Below, one piece after another: positions 10,413-63,361 of a stretch of 64,000 nt of DNA (position 1 is its first letter; each line of letters begins with the position of its first letter). The notes below the pieces were generated by a model. The model had not been told where the DNA came from and searched no databases. It worked only from the letters and a program-made list of their open reading frames with translations. The stretch lies in contig DATFBM010000012.1 in NCBI GenBank assembly GCA_035253825.1, positions 22,054 through 86,053 of the forward strand, in the 5' to 3' direction. Made by a program: the position numbers and the translations under genes. This stretch comes from Acidimicrobiia bacterium (lineage in GTDB: Bacteria; Actinomycetota; Acidimicrobiia; Spongiisociales; ZC4RG35).

Positions 10413-13400
10413 GAGACACCCGCCTTGATTGCATACTCCAGGGCCTCGGCCGGCGAGGCAACTCTCAGCTTGGCGAGCAACCCGTCCACTTGATCGGGCG
10501 TCGATTCCTGAGCCGATAGGGAGCCCGATGCCATCTCGCGGAGCAGTGCAAGGTCCTTCTCGCTCAACTCCGTGCCTTCCGGCTGTTCGGACGCCGACGA
10601 CTCGTAGCCAACTATTTCCGCCAACTCACGAACCATGGGGAGCGCAAACCACCGGGCATTGACCTCAGGGTCCGACATTGAAGCGTCGGCGAACCCCAAG
10701 GCGGCGATGATCTCGGCGCTCAGCGAAGCTGTTTCCGGCTCGTTGTTCACGATCAAGATCCGCCCCGCCGTCCACAGGGCGTGAACATATTGCTCGAGAA
10801 ATGTCTCGCCATCGAGCTGCAGGCAAGCCCGGGCTTCAACCGCGGCCGTCGAGAGATCACCCTTCGCCTGGGACACAAGCGCTAGCGCGGCGTGGGCCTC
10901 GGACTCCCAGGGCAGTTGACCGCTCATCGAATCGACCGTCGCCAGGGTTCGGGCCGCCGCTGACTTCGCCTTCTCCAGGGCCGACTCGTCACCGGTGGTG
11001 ACGCCGATCCGAGCGCATTCGAAAGCCATGGTCGACAGCGCCTGGCAACGCCCGCCCAGATTCTTCAGGCCCGCCAACTCCGCCGCCCGTTCGAAATGAG
11101 CGACAGTGCCGCCAAGGTCGTTACGCGCCGCGGCGTGGGCTCCCCGCCACATCTCCAGGCGGCGCGCCATGGATCCACTGGCAACCGATACCGCCGCGCC
11201 AGCGGCCCGTTCAAGCCATGCCACACATTGGAGTTCATCTCCGACCGATAAATGCGTCATCGCCATCCCACCCGCGACGAGACATTCCAGCCAGCGGTCA
11301 CCGAGGGCCCGCGCCGCATCGAAGGCCTCACGTCCTCGTTCCAGCGCCAATCCGGGTTGGAGATTCGTCCGCGCATATGTGTGGATGCTGTAAAGCATCA
11401 GGGAGTCGTCCTTGGCTCGCTGGCTCTCGGTGATCTCGCCACTCCGGTTGTGATGTAGGGCCCTGATGTGCTCCATGCGACCTGCCATGCCTGTTGCCGT
11501 CGGATCCGTGACATGCGCATACGCCATCAAGATCAAGGCGGACATCGACCCTCGCTTGTCACCGAGCTCTTCGTAGATTCGAAAGGCCTCCTCGGCCAGC
11601 TGCTTGGTTTTCCCAAACATCACCGGTGCCTGCATCAGGATCTCAATCCGTGACGTCCCGCTCTCCTCTGCTGCGATCGCCGCCCGCTTCACCCGTCCGG
11701 CCTCGATGACCGCCAGCTCCCGCATTGCATCGGCTTCCTCGGAACGTGCTCCGAGTTCTCGAGCAATGTCCAGGGCGGTCTGGAAGGCTGACTCCGCCGC
11801 GTCGAGGTCGACCTCGACCAGGGTCATATAGCCCTCGCCGATCGGTGCCCGGGTGAGTGCTTGCCCCAGTTCGAGACGAGCCGACAGCTCCAAGCGCCGG
11901 TCGCTCGAGTCCACGGCCGCCTGGCACACACCGAGGGCCAGGTCGGCTGCCATTTCGAAGTCCTGGTTGGCCCGAGCCGCCGACGCTCTCCTCAGCCTTA
12001 CTTCGTTGTCGATCTCGGGGAGTGCTGCTGCCAGCGCGCTCATCTCCGCCAGGTTGGCGAGTCGGTCGATTCCTCGGTCGAGGATTTGGAGAGCGTCGTC
12101 TCTTACTCGCAGCATCGAGATTCGATCCTCTGGCTTAGATGCCGCAGTCAGGGCGGCATCGATCAGCCGGACTGCCTCCTCGGGGGCGGAGACTTCCATC
12201 GCCGCCCGTGCCGCCGCCATCGCAGAAGAGACTGCTAGCGCTTGATCGCCCGCTCGCAGGGCGTGATGAGCCAGCATGGACAGGTTCTCGTTTCCCCCCA
12301 GAGCGGCCATCGACTCAGCGATGGCACCGTGGATTGCTCGCCGACGTTGCCTCGAGATCGAACTCAGCAACGCCGCCCTGATCTGGTCGTGCGAGAACGA
12401 GAAGTCGTAGCGGGATCCAGGGGGCTCTTCCACCAACAGACCCAAATCGATTGCCTTTTCCAGGGTCTCGCTGAGCTGCCATTCCGGCCTTTCGGGCTCG
12501 CCCTGCACCCGTGCCAGCATCCGGGCCAAGTCCCCGAGAGCGAATCGCCGCCCCAAGACCCCGGCGTCGGCAAGGAGAGCTCGACACTCCTCGGGCAGTT
12601 GGGCGAGCCGGCGCTCGATCAGTGACTGGATGGAGGAGGGCACCGCCGGACCGCTCAATTTGGTCATGGTCCAGATGCCGTTGATCAGCTGGAGCGCTTC
12701 CGCCTCCCGGTACGCCCGAGCCAACTCCTCCGCAAAGAATGGGACACCCTCGGATCGGGCGTGGAAACTGGCAACCGTGGCCTCATCCACCGGAGCGCCG
12801 AGCAGACCCTTGAGCAACTCTCCTGTCTGAATCCGGGTGAGGCGCTGCAGTCGTAACACCTGGGTCACGCGCATCCGGTCAAGGTCGGCGATCAGCTTTC
12901 CGGCACCACCCGAGCTCGAGTCCGAATGGGGGCGGAGGCTGATGAGCAGGAAAATGGGGCCGGAGGCAAGGGTCCTGACGAGGTAACGAATCAGCTGGAT
13001 GCTGTCGTCGTCGGCCCATTGCACGTCGTCAAATAGGAGCGCCAACGGCCGCTCCCTGGTCAGGGCCAGGAATGCCGAGGTCACCTCGTCGAAAGTCCTC
13101 AGCATCTTCTCTTGCGGCGAGAGACCCTCCGTTCGTGCACCATTGCCCCCGACCGCTTCCTGGGCTCGGTCCAATGCTTCCAATGCCATCGCCTGCTGGG
13201 CGATCGCGCTTGTGCGAGGTGACTTGAGCAGTGAGCGAAACAGGAGAAACGGACCCCTCAACTCCTCATCGGCTGCGACGTCAAGCACCCAGAACGGGGA
13301 TTCCATCCCGGTGGCTAGATCAGCGGTGGCTTCCAGCATCCGGGTCTTCCCGATGCCTGCCTCCCCTTCGATTACGACAGCCCGCAGCCCTCCGGGAGCT

Positions 13401-24585: not shown

Positions 24586-26910
<2,325 letters not shown>

Positions 26911-42641: not shown

Positions 42642-43181
42642 CTAGGCGATTAGGGCCTTGCGCAGGGAGAGGAAGGTCACTCCCGAAGCGATGAGTGCGA
42701 TTCCGACCACCAGGGCGAAAGCCGAGAGTGCGTAAGCCAGAAGGCCAAGGTTGAGAGCGGTCATCAGGCTCGTGGCATTGATCCAGCTAGCCCTCGCCGC
42801 GTTGGGCACCATGACGGGCTGTCCGTCTTCGCCAACGACCTCGTTCCCCGCCTCGTCGACCTGGGGGACCTGGCGAGGCATCTCGGAGTAGCGCAGCCCC
42901 TCAGTGCTGTCTAGCTGATGGTGCTCGATGATGGCGGACTGGGCATACATGCTCATCGGCCCTCGCACCGGCACCTCAGGGAAGATCGCGTCGTCAGGGG
43001 TCGTTATGTCCTCCTCGACTGCCTGACTCCAGGTGTAGACCGCTCCGAAAACACCGCCGGCGAACGATCCGATCCCGACCACCAGGGTGAGAATTCCAAC
43101 GATCGCTAGAAGCCGGCGACGTGCGTGCCCCGTACGTTCATCGAGAGCCTTGGTGGCTCTCCTCTCGACAACGGTTGTCAT
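42642..43181 (-). CDS. Uncharacterised bitopic membrane protein, family A (paralogue of 53031..53444)
   Basis: ATG 43181 follows AAGGAGG. N- and C-terminal TM helices flank a domain with GPMSMYAQSAIIEHHQLDSTEGLRYSEM. The paralogue has GPFSAYCEAQIIDQHALDATDGLRYAEL. Confidence 0.7.
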   Translation of the reverse strand: MTTVVERRATKALDERTGHARRRLLAIVGILTLVVGIGSFAGGVFGAVYTWSQAVEEDITTPDDAIFPEVPVRGPMSMYAQSAIIEHHQLDSTEGLRYSEMPRQVPQVDEAGNEVVGEDGQPVMVPNAARASWINATSLMTALNLGLLAYALSAFALVVGIALIASGVTFLSLRKALIA

Positions 43182-43248: not shown

Positions 43249-43289
43249 TAGGGCCGGCAGGTCCCTATGGCTCGGGACCTGTGGCCCTA
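43249..43289. promoter_or_regulatory. Two adjacent DevR-box-like palindromes in a divergent promoter
   Basis: TAGGGCCGGCAGGTCCCTA (43249-43267) and CGGGACCTGTGGCCCTA (43273-43289). They lie 67 nt and 69 nt from the two divergent start codons. Confidence 0.4.
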
Positions 43290-43358: not shown

Positions 43359-43820
43359 ATGCTCGTCTACTACTTCGGACACGTCGAGGGCACTCTGGCC
43401 GAGGTTGCCCTACTGATCAGCGATTCCCAAAGCGACCTCTCAGCCTGGGCTCGGTTGGCCGTCAGGCATGGAGAGGAATTGACAACCCGCCTCAACGCTG
43501 GGCCTTTTATGCCCGCCAAAGAGGTGCATATCGACGTGGGGAGGGCTGAGCGCCGTTCGGGTTCGGTGGTAATTCCCATCAAGTGGCAGGCGACGGGAGC
43601 GGAAGCTCTTTTCCCGGAGATGAACGCTGATCTGGTTCTTCAGCCCATTGGCCATATGTACGTCCAGGTGGTATTCAGAGGTTCCTATGACCCGCCATTC
43701 GGGGGGATCGGACGTTTGCTCGATCGGGCGCTGATGCATCGACTGGCTGAAGCCAGCGTCAAGTCATTCGTCGATCAGTTGTGCACCGCGGTCAACGAGC
43801 GCTCTAACGGAACCTCTTAG
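43359..43820 (+). CDS. Uncharacterised soluble protein, family B (paralogue of 54947..55438)
   Basis: MLVYYFGHVEG...VVIPIKWQATGAEALFPEMNADLVLQPIG...FRGSYDPPFGGIGRLLDRALMHRLAEASVKSF aligns along its whole length with MFVYYFVHVEK...TTVPISWKATGIGALFPVLEADLVVERIG...LQGRYRPPFGAVGRLLDAALFHRLAEACVKDF. Confidence 0.65.
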   Translation: MLVYYFGHVEGTLAEVALLISDSQSDLSAWARLAVRHGEELTTRLNAGPFMPAKEVHIDVGRAERRSGSVVIPIKWQATGAEALFPEMNADLVLQPIGHMYVQVVFRGSYDPPFGGIGRLLDRALMHRLAEASVKSFVDQLCTAVNERSNGTS

Positions 43821-44548
43821 CGGGAAATCCGGCGCCGCCACTCGGATGGCGGGTATTGGTGACTGGATTGAGCTTCAATCCGAGCCAGGTGAGCGGCCGC
43901 GCCAGCACGATGACCAATGCCCATCTTGGTCAGCAGGTTGGAGACGTAGTTCTTGACCGTCTTCTCAGCCAGAAAGAGATTGTCAGCGATTTCTCGGTTC
44001 GTTCTTCCGGCGGTGATTTGCTGAAGGATGATCCTCTCGCGCTGGGTCAGCCTCGCCAGCAGCGGGTCGTCGGGCAAACGACTGGCCTGGGTTGTTGGCG
44101 CGTCCCTGAACACTGTGTCACCAGCGGCCACTCGCCTGATGTCGTCGAGCAAATCGAACTCCTGAACGCGCTTGAGTACAAAGCCTGCCACACCCTCTCG
44201 TCGGGCGGCCTCGAGCGCTTGCTGGTCAGCAAATCCGGTCAAGATGAGAATTCGCGAGTTGGGAGAAACCCTGCGGGCTGCCCGACATACCTCAAGACCG
44301 GAACCATCTGGAAGGTCGAGGTCAACCACGATTACATCGGGTTCGTGGATCCCGATGCGGCGAATGGCGTCTGCCACGCTGGCGGCCTCAGCCACAACTT
44401 GGAAGTCGGCCGTTGCTTCGATGAGCGTGCGCAGTCCATGACGCACCAGATCGTGGTCGTCGACGAGCATCACCCGGGTTGGTGTATGGTCGCTTCCCCT
44501 TCCGGGTGCGTCAGGTGCAACGCGAGGAAGGTCAGTTGTGTTGACCAT
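43817..44548 (-). CDS. NarL/LuxR-family response regulator, DevR(DosR)-like (orphan, co-transcribed with a CBS gene)
   Basis: Receiver VMLVDDHDLVRHGL...VIVVDLDLPDGSG. HTH LTQRERIILQQITAGRTNREIADNLFLAEKTVKNYVSNLLTKMG. Alternative starts at 44473/44470. Confidence 0.9.
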   Translation of the reverse strand: MVNTTDLPRVAPDAPGRGSDHTPTRVMLVDDHDLVRHGLRTLIEATADFQVVAEAASVADAIRRIGIHEPDVIVVDLDLPDGSGLEVCRAARRVSPNSRILILTGFADQQALEAARREGVAGFVLKRVQEFDLLDDIRRVAAGDTVFRDAPTTQASRLPDDPLLARLTQRERIILQQITAGRTNREIADNLFLAEKTVKNYVSNLLTKMGIGHRAGAAAHLARIEAQSSHQYPPSEWRRRISR

Positions 44549-44945
44549 ATGCCGACTTTCGGCTCAACACCCCTGCTTCCCCGGTTATGGACCACATGAT
44601 GTCTTTCATGCTCACCATCCCGAGAAGCTTGCCGCCGTCAGCCACCGGCAGGTGCCGGTAGCCAGCCGCCAGCATCCATTCGGCGGCGTCCGTTACCTCG
44701 ATGTCGGGCTCCATCGAATCGGGGTCTCGGGTCATGTACTCGCTGGTTTGCGTGGTTTCGGGATCTCGTCCCTCTGCAACTGCCCGGACAACGTCTCGCT
44801 CCGAAATGATCCCAACCAGATAGTCATGCATCGTTATGGCGAGGGCTCCGTGTTCCTCGGCGACCATGCGCCGCGCCACATCAGCTATGGATGTGTCCAT
44901 TCCGCAGGTCTGAACCGGGCGGACCATTACTTCGCTAACCAACAT
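44532..44945 (-). CDS. CBS-pair domain protein (HRP1-like)
   Basis: 137 aa. LVSEVMVRPVQTC...LVGIISERDVVRAV...GYRHLPVADGGKLLGMVSMKDIMW. 17-nt overlap with the regulator gene. Confidence 0.85.
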   Translation of the reverse strand: MLVSEVMVRPVQTCGMDTSIADVARRMVAEEHGALAITMHDYLVGIISERDVVRAVAEGRDPETTQTSEYMTRDPDSMEPDIEVTDAAEWMLAAGYRHLPVADGGKLLGMVSMKDIMWSITGEAGVLSRKSAYGQHN

Positions 44946-45004
44946 ATCAAAACCTCCTAGAGCACCTCCGATTATCTCCCTCGGCCGTATCCGCCGCCAG
45001 GATG

Positions 45005-45038
45005 CAAAGGTCCCCGCCCGTAGGGCCGTTCGACCCTT
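45005..45038 (-). promoter_or_regulatory. Conserved 34-nt promoter element (copy 1) upstream of the CBS/DevR-like operon
   Basis: The minus strand reads AAGGGTCGAACGGCCCT-acgggc-GGGGACCTTTG, 59 nt before the start at 44945. Identical 17-nt and 11-nt blocks occur at 62875-62908. Confidence 0.55.
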
Positions 45039-45166
45039 AGGGCTGTCTTGGTCGCTCAGAACTGGATGCCAGTCAGGACCTTCGCCTCTGTGCAGTCGTG
45101 CACGCTTTGCGCCACCTTGACACCGACGGGGCCCCCCAAAAGGCCTCTCAGAAAGGAGGTGATCTT

Positions 45167-45508
45167 GTGACGCTGTTACTTGAACGAGAAAAGCGAACTG
45201 AGATCACCCGGAGCCCGGTCCGCCATATGACCGAATGGGTGCTTGGCCTGGCCGGGGTGGTAGCGGCCGCAGTGGGTGTGTGGATGTACTACGTCCCGAC
45301 TGATTGGTTCCTCGGAAACCTTGTCGAGGGTTGGTACCTAGGCATGTTTGCGGGAGCCGGTCTTCTTCTGTTCGCCGCCTTCGCGGTGCTCACCCGAAAG
45401 GCGTACGTCGTACACCGAGACTGGACAGCCACGGCTGTCTGGGCGGCAGGGTTCGCGATCGCCGCCCTCACGGGTGCGGTGGTGTTCGGCCTGATCTGGA
45501 TGCTCTGA
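45167..45508 (+). CDS. Hypothetical 3-TM membrane protein
   Basis: GTG 45167 lies 7 nt after AGGAGG. 113 aa, hydrophobic. Confidence 0.6.
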   Translation: MTLLLEREKRTEITRSPVRHMTEWVLGLAGVVAAAVGVWMYYVPTDWFLGNLVEGWYLGMFAGAGLLLFAAFAVLTRKAYVVHRDWTATAVWAAGFAIAALTGAVVFGLIWML

Positions 45509-45520
45509 TCCCCAACGCCC

Positions 45521-45560
45521 AAGGATCCGGGGACCCTGTGGGCCCCGGATCCTTTGCTTC
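45521..45560 (+). terminator. Rho-independent terminator (long hairpin) after 45167..45508
   Basis: AAGGATCCGGGG (45521-45532) pairs with CCCCGGATCCTT (45544-45555), with 3 further inner base pairs and a TTGCTTCTGTG tail. Confidence 0.65.
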
Positions 45561-45588
45561 TGTGTCGTGGCCCTCTGGCCCTAGGCGG

Positions 45589-45605
45589 AGGGCCGTTTGG
45601 CTCTA
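45589..45605 (+). promoter_or_regulatory. DevR-box-like site upstream of the tandem USP gene
   Basis: AGGGCCGTTTGGCTCTA, 56 nt before ATG 45662. It shares AGGGCCGTT with the CBS promoter box. Confidence 0.35.
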
Positions 45606-45661
45606 GCGCGAGTGCTGGCCCCCTCAGCAAGCTGGTGGCAGCCAAATCAAAGGAGATGTCC

Positions 45662-46477
45662 ATGACTAGCTTGCCAAGGCGTCCCTATCGCAGTGTCATT
45701 GTCGCTACGGACGGTTCCCGCCTGTCCCGTTCGGCACTGGCCGGGGGGGCGCTACTCGCCTCCCAATCCAAGGCCGAGCTCTATGTCTTTCATGCCGCGA
45801 CAAGTCTCGACGTCGAGCAATCTGTCCTGGATCAGGCCGCCGAAGTGCTCGGGATCCAAGAGCACAAGATGGTAGTTAGGGACCTCGACTTTGAGTCGAC
45901 ACCGGCCGAGATGATTGCGGAGTTCGCCCGCGAGCTTGGTGAGGAAACGATGGTGGCGGTCGGTACCCACGGCCGAGGGGGAGTCGGCCTTTCCGTACTC
46001 GGATCGACTGCCATTGATCTCTTGGCTCGCGCCAGCCAGCCAATCATCGCCTACGGACCGGAATCGAACTCTCCCATAGAAATCGCCAGAGTGGTGGCGT
46101 GCGTCGATGGCTCGGAGTTCTCCGAATTGAGCATCGGGGAGGCGGCAAGGTGGGCTAACGCTCTCGCCGTTCCACTTTGGGTAATTCAGGTGGTTCGACC
46201 ATACATGCCCGCCAAGATGGGCGTCTTCGAGACTGCATATGTCCACAACCTCGCAAAGGAAGTCGTAGGGCTCCAAGAGAAAGTGGAGTGGGACGTGCTT
46301 CACTCACCCTCCCCCGCCCACTCGATTCTCGACATGTATGGAAAGGACTCGGCGACCATGCTGGTGATGGCTACTCATGGGCGCACCGGGTTAGAGCGAC
46401 TGCTGCTCGGGAGCGTTGCGACCGGCGTGGTGAAAGGAGCCTGGGGCCCCGTCGTCCTGGTCTGCCCTCCTCAATAG
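45662..46477 (+). CDS. Universal stress protein (tandem USP domains)
   Basis: VIVATDGS...VGTHGRGGVGLSVLGSTAIDLL and VVACVDGS...MATHGRTGLERLLLGSVATGVV. Confidence 0.85.
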   Translation: MTSLPRRPYRSVIVATDGSRLSRSALAGGALLASQSKAELYVFHAATSLDVEQSVLDQAAEVLGIQEHKMVVRDLDFESTPAEMIAEFARELGEETMVAVGTHGRGGVGLSVLGSTAIDLLARASQPIIAYGPESNSPIEIARVVACVDGSEFSELSIGEAARWANALAVPLWVIQVVRPYMPAKMGVFETAYVHNLAKEVVGLQEKVEWDVLHSPSPAHSILDMYGKDSATMLVMATHGRTGLERLLLGSVATGVVKGAWGPVVLVCPPQ

Positions 46478-50846: not shown

Positions 50847-50887
50847 CTAGGGCCGACCGGCCCTAGGAGAAAGGCCGTTCCGCCCAA
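50847..50887 (-). promoter_or_regulatory. DevR-box-like palindrome plus a degenerate second box upstream of the PPOX-flavodoxin-USP-ATPase operon
   Basis: CTAGGGCCgaccGGCCCTAG (50847-50866; 8-bp perfect arms) lies 48 nt before the start at 50798. AAGGCCGTTCCGCCCAA is at 50871-50887. Confidence 0.45.
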
Positions 50888-53521: not shown

Positions 53522-53539
53522 AAGGGGCCAGTAGCCCTT
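53522..53539. promoter_or_regulatory. DevR-box-like palindrome in a divergent promoter
   Basis: AAGGGgccagtagCCCTT, 77 nt from both divergent start codons (53444 and 53617). Confidence 0.3.
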
Positions 53540-53616
53540 CGTTAGCTGCCGAATGGCCCTACCCCTCCCCGGTCAGGGCGAGCAAATTGCGAGGGTCCCC
53601 AACGCAGGGAGCCGCC

Positions 53617-54945
53617 ATGAACGATTCGTCCAAAGTTTTCGACCGCCTGATCATCTTCTTGTGTGTAATTGGAGTGCTTGCGATGGCTGCGACTTTGGTA
53701 GTCGCCATCCGGGGTCCAGCGGCAGCGGCCGAGACCAGTGGCAGCATGGTCGATGTCTCTTTATCTGAGTTCTCAATCAGTGGTGATCTAAACGTTCCGG
53801 TAGGACCCGTTGCCCTGCGTGTGACCAACAATGGGACGGTCGCTCACAACCTCCGGTTAGAGAACGGACCCGCCACTCCTGACCTCGGTGCTGGAGAGAG
53901 TGCAGCCCTCGATCTGGGTGAGCTTCCAGCCGGCTCTTATCGGCTGTTTTGCACGATTCCCGGACATGAGTCCGCCGGTATGAGCGCCTCCCTCGCCGTA
54001 GGATCCGAGGGCGAACACGCCGGACATGGAACCACCGTTGACTATGCGGCCATGGACGCGGCAATGGTGCAAAGCATCCTCCAGTTTCCGTCGGCCACCA
54101 CCGGGAGCGGCAATCAGCTGCTCGAACCGACGATTCTTGCCGATGGGACCAAGCAGTTCGAGATCACGGTCGCCATCACTCCATGGGAGGTAGAGCCTGG
54201 AAAAGTCGTCGATGCATGGACCTATAACGGCCAGGCACCCGGCCCGGCGATCAAAGTCGATGATGGCGACCGGGTGTCGGTGGTCGTCTCCAACGAGCTT
54301 CCCATGGGTACCGATGTTCACTTCCATGGGATCAAGCTCAGCAATGCCATGGATGGCGTATCACCTATCACTCAACCGCTGATCGAGCCCGGGGAAGCAT
54401 TCGAATACCAGTTCACCGCAGAAGGTCCCGCGGTTGCCATGTATCACGCCCACCACCATGCCCAGTTGCAGGTCCCCAACGGGCTGTTCGGTACCTTGAT
54501 CATCGGCGACTTGCCCTTACCGCTTGGTCGCACAATCGGCCGTCACGAGATACCAGGCGAGCTTGCGTTGTCCGCAGAGATACCCATGGTCCTCAACGAC
54601 GCCGGTGTGATCGGTTACTCCCTCAACGGCAAATCCTTCCCTGCTACCGCCCCCCACGTCGTAGGCCTGAACGAGTGGTTCCTGGTCCACTACTACAACG
54701 AAGGTCTCCAAATCCATCCCATGCACCTCCACGGATTCCCCCAGCTCGTGGTTGCCAAAGATGGATTCCCTCTCGACGAGCCCTATTGGGTCGACACACT
54801 CAACGTAGCTCCAGGAGAGCGATTCTCTGTTCTCGTCCACGCCACCGAGCTGGGGACCTGGGTGTGGCATTGCCACATCCTCAACCACGTTGAGTCCGAA
54901 ACCGGAATGTTTGGGATGGTCACCGCGGTGATCGTGGAGCCGTGA
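53617..54945 (+). CDS. Membrane-anchored multicopper oxidase with an extra N-terminal type-1 cupredoxin domain
   Basis: N-terminal TM. Cupredoxin with H...CTIPGHESAGM. MCO copper motifs HFHG, HAHHH, WHCHILNHVESETGMFG. Confidence 0.85.
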   Translation: MNDSSKVFDRLIIFLCVIGVLAMAATLVVAIRGPAAAAETSGSMVDVSLSEFSISGDLNVPVGPVALRVTNNGTVAHNLRLENGPATPDLGAGESAALDLGELPAGSYRLFCTIPGHESAGMSASLAVGSEGEHAGHGTTVDYAAMDAAMVQSILQFPSATTGSGNQLLEPTILADGTKQFEITVAITPWEVEPGKVVDAWTYNGQAPGPAIKVDDGDRVSVVVSNELPMGTDVHFHGIKLSNAMDGVSPITQPLIEPGEAFEYQFTAEGPAVAMYHAHHHAQLQVPNGLFGTLIIGDLPLPLGRTIGRHEIPGELALSAEIPMVLNDAGVIGYSLNGKSFPATAPHVVGLNEWFLVHYYNEGLQIHPMHLHGFPQLVVAKDGFPLDEPYWVDTLNVAPGERFSVLVHATELGTWVWHCHILNHVESETGMFGMVTAVIVEP

Positions 54946-58275: not shown

Positions 58276-59397
58276 TTACACCGGCAGGATCACTTTTACG
58301 GTCGTGCCCTGGCCGGACCGACTCCGAATTGTGGACTCGCCGCCTGACTTTTCGGCCCTCCAGCGGATATTGGAAAGGCCCATGCCTTCTCGGGCGCCGC
58401 CGACGTCAAAGCCCTTCCCTTTGTCCTCCACTTCAATGTGAAGAAAGCCCCCGCTCTTTCCGATGCTCACCCGCACTATGTCCGCCTTGGAGTGGCGCAA
58501 AGCGTTGCTTGTGGCCTCGCGCACGATCTGGATGACATCGTCGATCAGTTCACCTGAGATCGCGTCACCGTCTGCTTCTAGCTCGGGACCAACGTCGACT
58601 GTGACAGTGGTTTCGTACGGATCCGATAGCTGTCGGACGAGACGCGTTATGTCGGACGCAAGACTCCGAACGTTCCACGCCGGCGGGCGGAGGTCAAAGA
58701 TGAGCTTGCGCAACGAGGCGATCGCGTCGTCCAGACGCTGCACCGCGTCGTCGAGGTCGTTGCGCTCTCGCTCATTCTCGGAGCGAAGAGCCATGCCTTG
58801 GAGCAGTAGGCCGACCGCGAAGATGTCTTGGATGATGGCGTCATGGAGATCGCGGGCGATCCGCTCGCGATCATCAACGACGGCCAGTCTTCGTAATCGC
58901 TGGTGGGTTCGAACGTTTGAGATCGCCGAACCCGCTATCACCGCAAGCGCCTCGACCAGCATCTCGTCTTCCTCCGTGAAGCCGCTCGGCTTTTCGGTCA
59001 AGTAGAGGTTCCCGAACACCCGGTCACCGCTCCGGACGGGAACACCGAGGAACGAGCTCATCGGCGGGTGGTGAGGCGGAAATCCCGACGAGTCGGGGTG
59101 ATCCTGCAATCGATTCAGGCGGATCGTCCTGGCCGAATGGATCAATGTGCCGAGAACCCCTCGCCCCACCGGAAGCTGACCGATACGTTCGGCTACGCCG
59201 GGGTCGAGGCCGACGTGGAGGAACTCGACCAGAGTGCCCTGCTCGCCGATGACCCCGAGCGCGGCATAGCGGGCGCCAGTGGTCTCACGAGCTAGCTCGA
59301 CCGTACTCATGAGGAGGGCAGCTAGGTCAGAGTGGGCGGTCACAACCGCGGCCCCCTCGACCAGCGTTACCAGCTTGTCAGATGAGATGCCGGTCAC
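58276..59397 (-). CDS. Soluble sensor histidine kinase: single GAF domain, HisKA_3 and HATPase (DevS/DosT-like)
   Basis: GAF with GFPPHHPPMSSFLGVPVRSGDRVFGNLYLTEK. H-box RERIARDLHDAIIQ. C-terminal G-boxes (DKGKGF, GMGLSN). No TM segment. Confidence 0.9.
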   Translation of the reverse strand: MTGISSDKLVTLVEGAAVVTAHSDLAALLMSTVELARETTGARYAALGVIGEQGTLVEFLHVGLDPGVAERIGQLPVGRGVLGTLIHSARTIRLNRLQDHPDSSGFPPHHPPMSSFLGVPVRSGDRVFGNLYLTEKPSGFTEEDEMLVEALAVIAGSAISNVRTHQRLRRLAVVDDRERIARDLHDAIIQDIFAVGLLLQGMALRSENERERNDLDDAVQRLDDAIASLRKLIFDLRPPAWNVRSLASDITRLVRQLSDPYETTVTVDVGPELEADGDAISGELIDDVIQIVREATSNALRHSKADIVRVSIGKSGGFLHIEVEDKGKGFDVGGAREGMGLSNIRWRAEKSGGESTIRSRSGQGTTVKVILPV

Positions 59398-59441: not shown

Positions 59442-60104
59442 GTGAAAATTCTGCTGGTGGACGATCACGAGATCGTTCGCCGTGGGATCCGTGGACTCTT
59501 GGAAGGACAGGAAGACTTCACTGTGGTCGGCGAGGCGGCCAGCGCCGCCGAAGCGGTTCGGCGGACCGGATTCGACTCGCCGGATCTGGTGATCATGGAC
59601 GTTCGGCTTCCCGACGCATCGGGCGTAGAAGCCTGCCGAGACATCCGATCCGGATTCCCAGATGTCAAGGTGTTGATGCTTACCTCGTATGCTGACGAGG
59701 AGGCCCTGATGTCTGCAATCCTGGCCGGGGCTTCTGGCTACCTGCTGAAGCGAATCGACTCCGCGGAGCTGATCGAGAGCGTTCGCAAAGTCGGTCGGGG
59801 TGAATCGCTCCTCGATCCGGAGATGGTGACCAAACTCTTCAGCCGCCTGCGTGGCGGAGCCCCTTCCGACCCGCTCCTCTCCAGGCTCTCGGAGCAAGAG
59901 CGCAGGATCCTCGATCTGATCGCGGCGGGTCGAACCAACCGCCAAATCGCCGAGGACATGTTCCTGGCCGAGAAGACGGTGAAGAACTACGTCTCCAACT
60001 TGCTCGGCAAGCTTGGGATGGCGAGGCGCTCCGAGGCCGCGGCCTATGTGGCGCGGGTGACCTCAGGAACCCCCAGCGACCCACCCGAGGAGTGGAAGTC
60101 TTGA
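59442..60104 (+). CDS. NarL/LuxR-family response regulator, DevR(DosR)-like
   Basis: [16 protein letters not shown]...[71 protein letters not shown]. Divergent from the kinase gene with a 44-nt spacer. Confidence 0.9.
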   Translation: [220 protein letters not shown]

Positions 60105-60158: not shown

Positions 60159-62822
60159 CTACCAGGTCTTGGTCAGCGGCCGGGCAACTGGCCGGGACAC
60201 ACGAACCCGGTAATCAACTGCCACGCACTCCGAAGGCATTGCCAAAACCGGGTTTAGGTCGAGCTCTGCGACAGCAGGGAGATCAAGGCCGAGACGGGCG
60301 AGCCGGTGTACCAGGTCCACGAGCGTGGCGGGGTCGGCTGCGGTAGCCCCGCGATAGCCACGAACCAAGACCCCTGCCTTACCGCCGCTTATCAGCTCCT
60401 CTGCATCGATGTCGGTCAACGGCGCGATCTTGAAGGATGCTTCGCCAATCAGCTCGGCAAACACACCGCCTGGTCCGAATGCGACCAGCGGACCGAAGAC
60501 CGGATCCTGGACCAGGCCGGCGAGAAGCTCGACACCTCCCTTGACCATGGTCTGCACGACCAGCGGTCCACCGATGCGTTCGGCTGCGGCGCGAATAACC
60601 TCATCGCTTCCTAATTCGAGGGCGACACCTCCCAGGTCCGTTTTGTGCACCCCTGCAGCGCCGGTCTTGATCGCAACCGGAAAACCCAGCTCTCGCGCAG
60701 CTGCCACCGCCTCATCGGCCGAGGACACCTGTCGCTCCGCTACTAGCGGAAGGCCGTAAGCGAGCAAGAGCTTGCGGGCCGCGGGTGCCTCGAGCCAGCA
60801 CTCATCCCGCTCACGCAGGGCTTCGTCGATCACGGCCTGAGCAACGGAGCGGTCAATGTTCGCAAGACTGGGAACGGATCCCAGCGGGCGTCGCAGCCAA
60901 TCGGCACGTTCGGCGGCCCGCCCAAGGGCGCGGGCGGCGGATTCCGGATACGTGAAAGCGGCTGCGGCACTCCGATCAGAGCGCAGAGCTTTGGGGATGC
61001 CCTCAGCACTCATCACGACTGCCAAAACCGGTTTGGCTTGACTCTGCGCTCTATCGGCAATAGCCGACGCAACCGCGTCGGCACCCGCGCTCACCGCCGG
61101 CACGAAGAGCACGATCACTGCGTCGACTGCCGGGTCCGCGAGGACATGTGGTAGTACCGAGCTGTAGGACGCTTCGGTGGCAGATCCCAGCATGTCGATG
61201 GGATTCCCGAGGCTCGCCTCGGGCGGAAGGAGAGGACGGAGCGATTCAAGCGTCGCCTCGCCGAGTGGAGGTAGCTCCAACCCGGCGGCGTCGCAGGCGT
61301 CGGCACAGAGAATGCCCAAACCTCCGGCGTTGGTCATCACCGCCACTCGGCGACCGAGGGGAAGCGGCTGCGCCGATAACAGTGAAGCGACATCGATCAA
61401 TTCCTCGAGTGATTCGGTGCGAATCACGCCGGCTTGCTGGAAGAGCGCATTGACCGCCGCCTCGGAACCAGCGAGGGCTGCGGTGTGGGAACTCGCGGCT
61501 CTCGCTCCGGCTCCGGTCGAGCCGCTTTTTACGGCCAGAATCGGCTTTCGCCGCGCCACCCGCCTGGCGATCGAAGCAAATCGGCGCGGGTTACCAAAGC
61601 TCTCCAGGTAGAGGAGGATGACGTCGGTGGCGGGATCATCCTCCCACCACTCGAGCAAGTCATTCGAGGAAATGTCCGCTTTGTTCCCGATCGAGACAAA
61701 CGCCGAAAGGCCAAGGCCCCGGGAATGGGCCGCTTCGAGGAGGGCGAGGCCCAGGGCGCCGCTTTGGGACGAGAAACCGATGTTGCCAGGCGGGGCCGAG
61801 CGAGCGGCAAAAGTGGCATTGAGCCGAGTCGACGCTGACGTAATTCCGAGACAGTTCGGACCCAACAGGCGCGCCCCGTAGGCCCGGATCAATCCCAACA
61901 ACTCTTGTTGTCGATGCTCTCCCTCTGATCCAACCTCGGCGAAGCCTGCCGAGATAACACAAACGGCTCGCACCCCGGTCTGCAAAGCGGACTCAACACT
62001 TTCAATGACCGATCTCGCCGGGACTGCGACCACCGCCAGGTCGACGGTCTCCGGGATCTCCGCCATGGACTCGTAGCCCCTCACTCCCGCCACCGGAGAT
62101 CCGTCGCGATTTACCGGATAGACGGCCCCCGCGAACTCACTTTCGAGGATATTGCGGAAGAGCTCCCCTCCGATCGTGCCCCGGCGAGCCGAGGCGCCAA
62201 TGACGGCGACGGCTCGGGCCTCGAAAAAGGGTCGGAGAGATGCCACGACCGCCCCGTGATCACGGCTCTCGACCTGGGACGAATATCGGGAAGTCGTTGC
62301 TATCGGAAAGATCATTTCGACCTCGCCCCCGGATGCCACCCGACTGACCTCGAATCCGATACCTTCGAAGACCTGAATCATCTCGCGGTTTTCGGCCATG
62401 ACCTCGCCGATGAAGTACTCGATGCCCTCGGCAGCGGCCCGCCCGGCGAGTTGCTCGAGGAGCCTCGTCCCTATTCCTCGTCCTTGATGCGAATCGGCTA
62501 CGGACACGGCGAACTCTGCACGCCGCGGATCGCGCAAACGCACGTAGTTCGCCAACGCCACAATTCGCTCCGCACCCGATTCTGCGGCTGAACCGAGCAA
62601 AGCTCCGGTGTTCGTCCAGTCGGATGCGAGCACCGGGTCGACCAACCTGTGATCGACCTTCGGAAAGCCGTGAAACCGGTAGTACAGGCTCTGCCGAGAG
62701 AGGGCTCTGTAGAAATCGAGCAAGCCCTCGCGGTCCGCAGAAGTTGGAGCTCGGAGCCGCAACGTGCGACCGTCGCGCAAGATGACGTCGATGGGCTGAT
62801 CGATGGCAGCGTTTCTGGTCAC
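60159..62822 (-). CDS. GNAT acetyltransferase fused to an ADP-forming acyl-CoA synthetase-like module (Pat-type protein acetyltransferase architecture)
   Basis: N-terminal GNAT (VADSHQGRGIGTRLLEQL...). Then CoA-binding (VAVIGAS...), CoA-ligase and C-terminal ATP-grasp-like regions. 887 aa. Confidence 0.9.
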   Translation of the reverse strand: MTRNAAIDQPIDVILRDGRTLRLRAPTSADREGLLDFYRALSRQSLYYRFHGFPKVDHRLVDPVLASDWTNTGALLGSAAESGAERIVALANYVRLRDPRRAEFAVSVADSHQGRGIGTRLLEQLAGRAAAEGIEYFIGEVMAENREMIQVFEGIGFEVSRVASGGEVEMIFPIATTSRYSSQVESRDHGAVVASLRPFFEARAVAVIGASARRGTIGGELFRNILESEFAGAVYPVNRDGSPVAGVRGYESMAEIPETVDLAVVAVPARSVIESVESALQTGVRAVCVISAGFAEVGSEGEHRQQELLGLIRAYGARLLGPNCLGITSASTRLNATFAARSAPPGNIGFSSQSGALGLALLEAAHSRGLGLSAFVSIGNKADISSNDLLEWWEDDPATDVILLYLESFGNPRRFASIARRVARRKPILAVKSGSTGAGARAASSHTAALAGSEAAVNALFQQAGVIRTESLEELIDVASLLSAQPLPLGRRVAVMTNAGGLGILCADACDAAGLELPPLGEATLESLRPLLPPEASLGNPIDMLGSATEASYSSVLPHVLADPAVDAVIVLFVPAVSAGADAVASAIADRAQSQAKPVLAVVMSAEGIPKALRSDRSAAAAFTYPESAARALGRAAERADWLRRPLGSVPSLANIDRSVAQAVIDEALRERDECWLEAPAARKLLLAYGLPLVAERQVSSADEAVAAARELGFPVAIKTGAAGVHKTDLGGVALELGSDEVIRAAAERIGGPLVVQTMVKGGVELLAGLVQDPVFGPLVAFGPGGVFAELIGEASFKIAPLTDIDAEELISGGKAGVLVRGYRGATAADPATLVDLVHRLARLGLDLPAVAELDLNPVLAMPSECVAVDYRVRVSRPVARPLTKTW

Positions 62823-62874
62823 CGAGCCGTCCTTTCTAGGTAGAGGAACAAGATCGCGGCGTGGGTCGCAGGCA

Positions 62875-62908
62875 AAGGGTCGAACGGCCCTCTCCGAGGG
62901 GACCTTTG
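62875..62908 (+). promoter_or_regulatory. Conserved 34-nt promoter element (copy 2) upstream of the second CBS gene
   Basis: AAGGGTCGAACGGCCCT-ctccga-GGGGACCTTTG, 57 nt before ATG 62966. See 45005-45038. Confidence 0.55.
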
Positions 62909-62965
62909 AACCTGATCACCTCTGCCTGGTTAGAGGATGATTGCAGTCAGAAGGGAGATACGAAG

Positions 62966-63361
62966 ATGCTGGTAGGAGATGCCATGAGAAGCCCAGTCGA
63001 CACGTGTTCGATCGACACCACCGTTGCGCAGGCAGCGAGGCGTATGACAGAGGACGATCAGGGGGCGATGCCAGTCACTCTCCATGGGTCGCTCATCGGG
63101 ATCATCACCGAACGTGACGTTCTTAGGTCCGTCGGTCGGGGTGAGAACCCGGGAGGGACAAAGGTCAAGTACTTGATGACTCCGGATCCAGATCATCTCA
63201 GGCCCGACGTGAAAATTGAAGATGCCGCGGACTGGATGCTCGCTGCCGGCTATCGACATCTGCCTGTCGTCGAAGACGGCCAGGTACTTGGCATTCTGAG
63301 CGTTAAGGACGTGCTGTGGGCGCTCACCGGTAGGAGTGCCGACTTCGTTCAGCCGTTATGA
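62966..63361 (+). CDS. CBS-pair domain protein (HRP1-like), paralogue of 44532..44945
   Basis: ATG 62966 follows GGGAGA. LVGDAMRSPVDTC...LIGIITERDVLRSV...GYRHLPVVEDGQVLGILSVKDVLW. Confidence 0.85.
   Translation: MLVGDAMRSPVDTCSIDTTVAQAARRMTEDDQGAMPVTLHGSLIGIITERDVLRSVGRGENPGGTKVKYLMTPDPDHLRPDVKIEDAADWMLAAGYRHLPVVEDGQVLGILSVKDVLWALTGRSADFVQPL

Follow-up and report, generated by a model that had tools for sequence, protein, structure and literature searches.

The window analysed here is a 64-kb stretch of DNA in which two paralogous genes for CBS-pair proteins, CBS1 and CBS2, are each preceded by one copy of a 34-nt element. Two response regulators and a sensor histidine kinase are encoded in the same region:

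43817-44945, minus strand: the apparent CBS1-RR1 operon, which copy 1 would drive (CBS-pair protein at 44532-44945; response regulator RR1 at 43817-44548 or 43817-44470; Pfam CBS and Response_reg+GerE)
62966-63361, plus strand: the CBS2 gene, encoding a CBS-pair protein 51% identical to CBS1
59442-60104, plus strand: RR2, a DevR/DosR homologue (3C3W, E 2e-65)
58276-59397, minus strand: sensor histidine kinase with one GAF domain, HisKA_3 and HATPase_c (Pfam; 2VZW, E 1.4e-40)

RR1 lies downstream of CBS1, directly adjacent and on the same strand, and the two apparently form one operon. The best solved-structure match of both regulators was M. tuberculosis DevR (3C3W), with E 1.7e-41 for RR1 and E 2e-65 for RR2; the RR2 alignment was full-length, including helix alpha10, and RR2 is the closer homologue. 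NCBIfam yielded no DevR-specific model for RR2, the best match being MadR, below the cutoff. Both proteins are NarL-family regulators with an identical recognition helix, AEKTVKNYVS, which carries K179, K182 and N183; in the DosR transcription activation complex these three residues read GGGACT/TGTCCC (PMC3177182; PMC13486717). The GAF domain of the kinase matches the haem-binding GAF-A domains of DosT (2VZW, E 1.4e-40) and DevS (~1e-37) and keeps the HHPPM motif, and the kinase is thus of the DevS/DosT haem-GAF type, with a single GAF domain where the M. tuberculosis enzymes have two.

The initial annotation had placed a DevR-like regulator next to each copy of the element. This holds for copy 1, where RR1 adjoins CBS1, and does not hold for copy 2, where RR2 lies 2.9 kb from CBS2 with another gene between them. 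That gene (60159-62822, minus strand), divergent from CBS2, encodes an 887-aa fusion of an N-terminal GNAT domain (the Pat-like match was weak and below cutoff) and an ADP-forming acyl-CoA synthetase. The kinase and RR2 genes are divergently arranged across a 44-bp gap, and the divergent arrangement is kept in more than 40 Acidimicrobiia loci. The gap holds no box of the kind described below, and RR2 may for this reason not be autoregulated. We also considered the two CBS proteins as orthologues of Rv2626c and rejected this, as a PDB sequence search at E<=1e-5 returned no Rv2626c chain; they show no detectably greater similarity to Rv2626c than to CBS-pair proteins in general, and any correspondence would be a functional analogy only.

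Read in gene orientation, the CBS1 copy of the element is AAGGGTCGAACGGCCCT-acgggc-GGGGACCTTTG (45038->45005, minus strand), 59 nt before the ATG at 44945, and the CBS2 copy is AAGGGTCGAACGGCCCT-ctccga-GGGGACCTTTG (62875-62908, plus strand), 57 nt before the ATG at 62966. Recounting reproduced what had been claimed for the pair: 29 of the 34 positions are the same, with block 1 identical at 17/17 positions, block 2 at 11/11 and the spacer at 1/6. The divergence claimed for the surrounding non-coding sequence was likewise borne out, since in the same register only 9 of 50 nt upstream and 15 of 57 nt downstream are identical (18-26%, random level). Between the two genes themselves, nucleotide identity is 58% across the coding DNA and 30% at third codon positions (saturated). 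With the blocks alone held constant and their surroundings diverged, the duplication must be old.

A search of the window with the 17-mer of block 1, a check that the initial annotation had suggested for the whole genome, gave 3 matches at up to 3 mismatches against 0.23 expected; none of 100 shuffles reached 3. All three matches are intergenic and none lies in coding DNA. The third is a perfect palindrome, TAGGGCCGACCGGCCCTA, at 50848-50865. The 11-mer of block 2 alone was not significant in the 64-kb window, and the bare core GGGNCNNNNGNCCC was found 5 times in the window against 4.6 expected, a count that is not over-represented, although 4 of the 5 matches fall in intergenic DNA (~11% of the window). 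Because the core count is not enriched, the argument is built on where the boxes lie, on their flanks and tandem phasing, and on their conservation across species. We further scanned the 64 kb with a position weight matrix (PWM) trained exclusively on boxes from other organisms. Its top three matches, at 62874 (the CBS2 copy), 45020 (the CBS1 copy) and 50847-50866, are all intergenic and all above 20 shuffles; block 1 of CBS2 was the window's top match with a score of 23.2, and block 1 of CBS1 scored 18.9 against a maximum of 16.6 in the 20 shuffles. Two box-like sequences inside coding regions (25501-25520 and 11818-11837) had PWM scores of 12.3 and 11.2, within the shuffled range, and are probably chance matches.

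Block 1 is a predicted complete DevR/OsdR-type box, AGGGTCGAACGGCCCT (A-GGGTC-GAAC-GGCCC-T), a 16-18-bp palindrome. Its cores, GGGTCGAACGGCCC, follow the GGGnC-N4-GnCCC pattern of the 16-20-bp Dev box palindrome and keep the third G and C of each half-site, the positions found essential for DevR binding in M. tuberculosis (Chauhan et al. 2011, PMC3177182; Shi et al. 2026, PMC13486717). The position between these two bases is T or C here and A in M. tuberculosis, so that the distal half-site reads GGGTC/GGGCC rather than GGGAC. The closest sequence match is the box of S. coelicolor OsdR (SCO0204), 5'-AGGGCCGATCGGCCCT, which was confirmed by EMSA (Urem et al. 2016, PMC5069765): block 1 agrees with this Streptomyces consensus at 14/16 positions, and a further box in the window, at 50849-50864, at 15/16. 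The earlier description of block 1 as a DosR-like GGG-N8-CCC palindrome thus agrees with both comparisons.

Block 2, for which the initial annotation had given no interpretation of its own, is the putative upstream half, centre and first downstream base (G10) of a second, promoter-proximal box, GGGAC-CTTT-G. The core of this box starts exactly 22 bp (about two helical turns) past the distal core in both copies, which fits the tandem, in-phase arrangement characteristic of DevR promoters, with at least two adjacent boxes about 21 bp apart from centre to centre. Conservation in the proximal box covers the left half-site, the centre and G10, and the remainder of the right half is degenerate. The 6-nt spacer would then be an uncontacted linker between the boxes, which would explain why it alone has diverged within the element. 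The predicted boxes are as follows:

45022-45038, minus strand: block 1 of CBS1, distal complete box AAGGGTCGAACGGCCCT (core GGGTCGAACGGCCC at 45036->45023; PWM 18.9; OsdR 14/16)
45001-45015, minus strand: extended block 2 of CBS1, proximal box GGGACCTTTGCATC (core 22 bp after the distal core)
62875-62891, plus strand: block 1 of CBS2, distal complete box AAGGGTCGAACGGCCCT (core at 62877-62890; PWM 23.2)
62898-62912, plus strand: extended block 2 of CBS2, proximal box GGGACCTTTGAACC (core at 62899-62912; 22 bp; tandem score 8+7 of 16)

The 22-bp tandem rule, applied to the whole 64-kb window, returned 8 pairs against 3.6 expected. Six of the 8 are intergenic, with intergenic DNA making up ~11% of the window (binomial estimate ~5e-5), and in each of the six an nAnnnT hexamer stands 36-38 nt after the proximal GGG. 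These six pairs are:

43252-43287, no strand assigned: GGGCCGGCAGGTCCC / GGGACCTGTGGCCC, 22 bp apart, between two divergent unknown genes (42642-43181, minus strand; 43359-43820, plus strand)
45001-45036, minus strand: the CBS1-RR1 pair, found by the 22-bp tandem rule
45568-45603, plus strand: TGGCCCTCTGGCCC / GGGCCGTTTGGCTC, before a tandem-USP gene (45662-46477), with a -10-like CAAGCT at 45628-45633
50850-50885, minus strand: a perfect proximal palindrome, TAGGGCCGGTCGGCCCTA, with a degenerate distal box, before a PNPOx-flavodoxin-USP-P-type ATPase operon (50798->46520)
53524-53559, plus strand: GGGGCCAGTAGCCC / CTGCCGAATGGCCC, the weakest of the set, before a multicopper oxidase gene (53617-54945), with a -10-like CAAATT at 53583-53588
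62877-62912, plus strand: the CBS2 pair, found by the 22-bp tandem rule

The pair at 50850-50885 is followed by a -10-like GACACT at 50827->50822, and its 50849-50864 box, besides matching the OsdR consensus, is identical at 15/16 positions to the Streptomyces OsdR site at SCO0208. The genes behind the boxes are of the stress, hypoxia and redox type, comprising the two CBS genes, the tandem USP gene, the PNPOx-flavodoxin-USP-P-type ATPase operon and the multicopper oxidase gene. As the same type of operator stands before at least four other stress-type units within 20 kb, the region from 43 to 63 kb, judged by its predicted boxes, has the appearance of a DosR-type regulon island.

Several further features were noted in this region. 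None of the unknown proteins of the putative regulon (153, 179 and 113 aa) matched a Pfam or NCBIfam family, even at E<=1. The gene for the 153-aa protein (43359-43820, plus strand), which has the double box upstream here, is found beside that of the DevS-like kinase in most loci from Acidimicrobiia, and its product may be a conserved, so far uncharacterised member of the regulon or an accessory protein. The other two proteins without family match, encoded at 42642-43181 (minus strand) and 45167-45508 (plus strand), are small membrane proteins. A lone half-site, AGGACCTTCG, at 45075-45084 faces the divergent gene; we set it aside, since it has no phased partner and is possibly a chance occurrence. 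An inverted repeat at 45523-45558 (plus strand; ggatccgggg...ccccggatcc followed by TTTGCTT) directly follows the 113-aa gene and precedes the USP boxes. It is probably an intrinsic terminator whose short T-run escaped a simple scan.

We then compared the CBS loci with a set of CBS homologues in 80 genome loci, almost all from Acidimicrobiia. About 20 divergent Acidimicrobiia genomes have the two-block layout ahead of their CBS homologues, in the order GGGnC-N4-GnCCC, 8 poorly conserved nucleotides, GGGAC(C)tTtG, about 23 unconserved nucleotides, [CG]A...T, Shine-Dalgarno sequence and ATG; in these roughly 20 CBS loci the distal palindrome begins 83-95 nt ahead of the ATG. Of 78 CBS-upstream windows, 38 had a tandem score of 13/16 or more, compared with 45 of 3015 control windows. 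When the spacing was left free, the offsets from a perfect box to a partner (at least 6/8) peaked at 22 bp, with 14 observed against 1.2 expected, and the histogram had shoulders at 21 and 23 bp.

Gene order is conserved as well. In more than 40 Acidimicrobiia loci the CBS gene shares its neighbourhood with the gene for the 153-aa unknown protein, the kinase gene and RR2, and a CBS gene directly followed by an RR1-type regulator is conserved in the subgroup nearest CBS1 (L004-L014 and L031). Related genomes illustrate variation in the boxes. The SMAG_U8708 MAG (DATEDN01) is the closest relative, 99% identical; upstream of its 99% identical CBS1 (L004, 2908-2945), GGG has become GAG in box 1 and GGGACC has become GGGACT in block 2, and its CBS2 copy (L013) is unchanged; this is a case of natural variation within the operator. 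In a related genome, the paralogous boxes at L005 and L008 differ from each other (GGGTC vs GGGCC).

The position of the element relative to the promoter was assessed from the aligned sequences. A -10-like sAnnnT hexamer ([CG]A...T) stands 37-38 nt after the proximal GGG in 22 of 22 aligned promoters, and at the two CBS genes the corresponding predictions are:

44971-44976, minus strand: predicted -10 of CBS1, GATAAT, 38 nt after the proximal GGG, with a predicted TSS near 44964
62936-62941, plus strand: predicted -10 of CBS2, GATGAT, 37 nt after the proximal GGG, with a predicted TSS near 62948

On these predictions the box centres would fall near -64.5 (distal) and -42.5 (proximal), or at about -65.5 and -43.5 for CBS1. 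Provided that this conserved hexamer functions as the -10, the proximal box (18 bp) would have its edge at about -34 and its centre at about -42.5/-43.5, and its degenerate downstream half would abut the -35 region. This predicted geometry would be that of the class I DevR promoters of M. tuberculosis, which include tgs1-Rv3131, Rv3134c-devRS and Rv2626c (PMC3177182; PMC13486717). The proximal Dev box of M. tuberculosis promoters is often degenerate and is 33-34 bp away from the TSP, the box centres are at -42.5/-63.5 at tgs1-Rv3131 and -43.5 at hspX, and every promoter of the regulon needs tandem boxes in phase (PMC3177182; PMC13486717).

No canonical -35/-10 promoter was present in either CBS upstream region, as expected for activator-dependent promoters. 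We rejected the element as a core sigma-70-type promoter, as a TTGACA-/TATAAT-like pair 16-18 bp apart was not found in either region, and we rejected the TTG of block 2 as a -35, as it lies 24 nt from the conserved -10, which is too far. Since the element is situated upstream of the predicted -10, it would be an operator rather than a core promoter.

Three other explanations of the element were weighed. It might act as RNA, forming a 5'-leader hairpin (AGGGUC-GAAC-GGCCCU) or an AAGGGUC/GACCUUU pairing that controls CBS translation or termination, and some features are compatible with this: both 34-mers fold with the outer AAGGGUC/GACCUUU stem, block 1 is self-complementary, and the folding z of the CBS1 copy is -2.0. 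The CBS2 copy, however, folds no better than shuffles (z = -0.6). Covariation was absent from both helices across 22 sequences, their scores being reached by 178 of 500 and 109 of 500 shuffles, and many cells in the candidate helices are A.G or C.U mismatches. In addition, Rfam gave no match anywhere in the window, the element is upstream of the conserved -10-like hexamer, and boxes of this type are found in either orientation, also between divergent genes. With neither covariation nor a curated RNA family match, we rejected a cis-regulatory RNA and regard it as highly improbable. It is even harder to credit that the identity of the copies is a functionless leftover of recent duplication or gene conversion between the loci. 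The loci are indeed paralogous, 18 kb apart and alike at 28 identical bases, but the internal spacer differs at 5/6 positions, identity in the flanks is at random level, third codon positions have reached saturation (30%), about 20 other genomes keep these two blocks, and the paralogous boxes at L005 and L008 differ slightly.

A protein site with another role deserves more consideration, although we still judge it quite unlikely: the element could be bound by a regulator other than the two DevR paralogues, could be a repressor operator for these, or could mainly serve the divergent neighbours (the 45167 gene, and the GNAT/acyl-CoA synthetase gene at 62822). Both copies do lie in divergent intergenic regions, divergent genes share boxes in M. 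tuberculosis, and other NarL-family regulators may exist in the genome beyond the 64-kb window. Box 1 of CBS2 is centred 61 nt from the GTG of the 60159-62822 gene, a typical proximal-box distance, and this operator may be shared; such sharing would be compatible with an activating role at CBS2 and is not opposed to it. Against the other roles, 22 of 22 promoters have the oriented half-box GGGAC and the fixed -10 pointing to the CBS gene, DevR/OsdR is matched in box sequence, tandem phasing and recognition helix, and a predicted centre near -42.5 without a -35 is typical of activation.

On the observed sequence conservation, geometry, homology of the regulators and the kinase, and gene content, we consider it very probable that a DevR/DosR (OsdR)-type NarL-family response regulator uses the 34-nt element as a tandem operator, which would form the activator-dependent part of both CBS promoters. 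The initial annotation had proposed a protein-binding promoter element for DevR-like regulators, and the box match, the regulator homology, the nearby kinase of matching type, the phylogenetic footprint and the lack of RNA covariation support that proposal. As to how the regulators bind, where transcription starts, which signal induces it, in which direction it is regulated and how RR1 and RR2 share the work, we infer the following course. A low-oxygen or redox/NO-type signal would lead the haem-GAF kinase (58276-59397) to phosphorylate RR2 and/or RR1. Dimers of the regulator would bind the distal box and then, cooperatively, the proximal box, with centres near -64.5 and -42.5, and the bound regulator would recruit RNA polymerase to promoters with a -10 (sAnnnT) and without a usable -35. 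At the CBS1 copy this would create a positive autoregulatory loop, because RR1 appears to be co-transcribed with CBS1. A more elaborate scheme, which we think unlikely, is a two-tier relay in which a constitutive DevS-like kinase/RR2 pair would switch on box-driven RR1, co-transcribed with a CBS-pair sensor. Both paralogues would then read one operator, possibly as mixed oligomers, and the conserved oriented half-box GGGACCTTTG might reflect a non-mycobacterial binding mode, in which DNA would be contacted by one monomer and RNA polymerase would hold its partner.

The putative tandem operator and its setting resemble the M. tuberculosis system in many respects. Both have the GGG-N8-CCC palindrome with an essential G and C per half-site, at least two phased tandem boxes, a regulator with K179/K182/N183 and a haem-GAF kinase. 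The M. tuberculosis position of the proximal box, with its edge about 33-34 bp away from the TSS and box centres at -42.5/-43.5 and about -63.5, would be approached here at the predicted TSS. Known DevR targets in M. tuberculosis include Rv2626c, ctpF and several USPs (PMC3177182; PMC13486717), and the candidate targets here are likewise USPs, a stand-alone CBS protein, a P-type ATPase (ctpF there) and redox proteins. Also common to both, as a prediction in our case, is a box-dependent promoter from which a small stress gene and the regulator gene behind it are transcribed together. Besides the distal half-site and the number of GAF domains, the two differ in the spacing of the boxes (22 bp here, 21 bp at tgs1) and in the partner of the regulator gene, a CBS gene here and a USP gene there.

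As at the loci described here, the OsdR sites are clustered around the regulator gene, precede USP, nitroreductase-like and redox genes, and lie in divergent intergenic regions (PMC5069765). The actinobacterial class differs, as the present lineage belongs to the Acidimicrobiia and is uncultured, and the strict promoter-proximal half-box with its fixed -10 distance has no counterpart in the OsdR text consulted (PMC5069765). The kind of switch is well known and no new mechanism is proposed; for this lineage the switch is without an earlier description, and our literature search found no paper linking DosR with Acidimicrobiia. In box, phasing, predicted promoter distance, haem-GAF kinase and typical targets, a DosR/OsdR dormancy-type switch thus appears to reach uncultured soil Acidimicrobiia, which supports an ancient origin of this promoter architecture within Actinomycetota. 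The PWM together with the geometry can be used for predicting hypoxia regulons in MAGs.

Finally, we scanned metagenomes with a composite 32-nt pattern and obtained more than 120 loci of mixed origins, which we excluded from the evidence. Only 29 of 134 matches had a -10-like hexamer at the right offset, and chance matches are plausible in GC-rich DNA. One of the loci (L176) is a close CBS relative. Many contigs, among them L084, L086, L089 and L091, carried a GC-rich triple box, CAAAGGTCCC-N8-GGGACCAATGGCCC-N8-GGGACCTTTG, which is found in an AT-rich divergent intergenic region of a low-GC organism present in several metagenomes. The sequence of this triple box suggests a DosR-like operator outside the high-GC actinobacteria.
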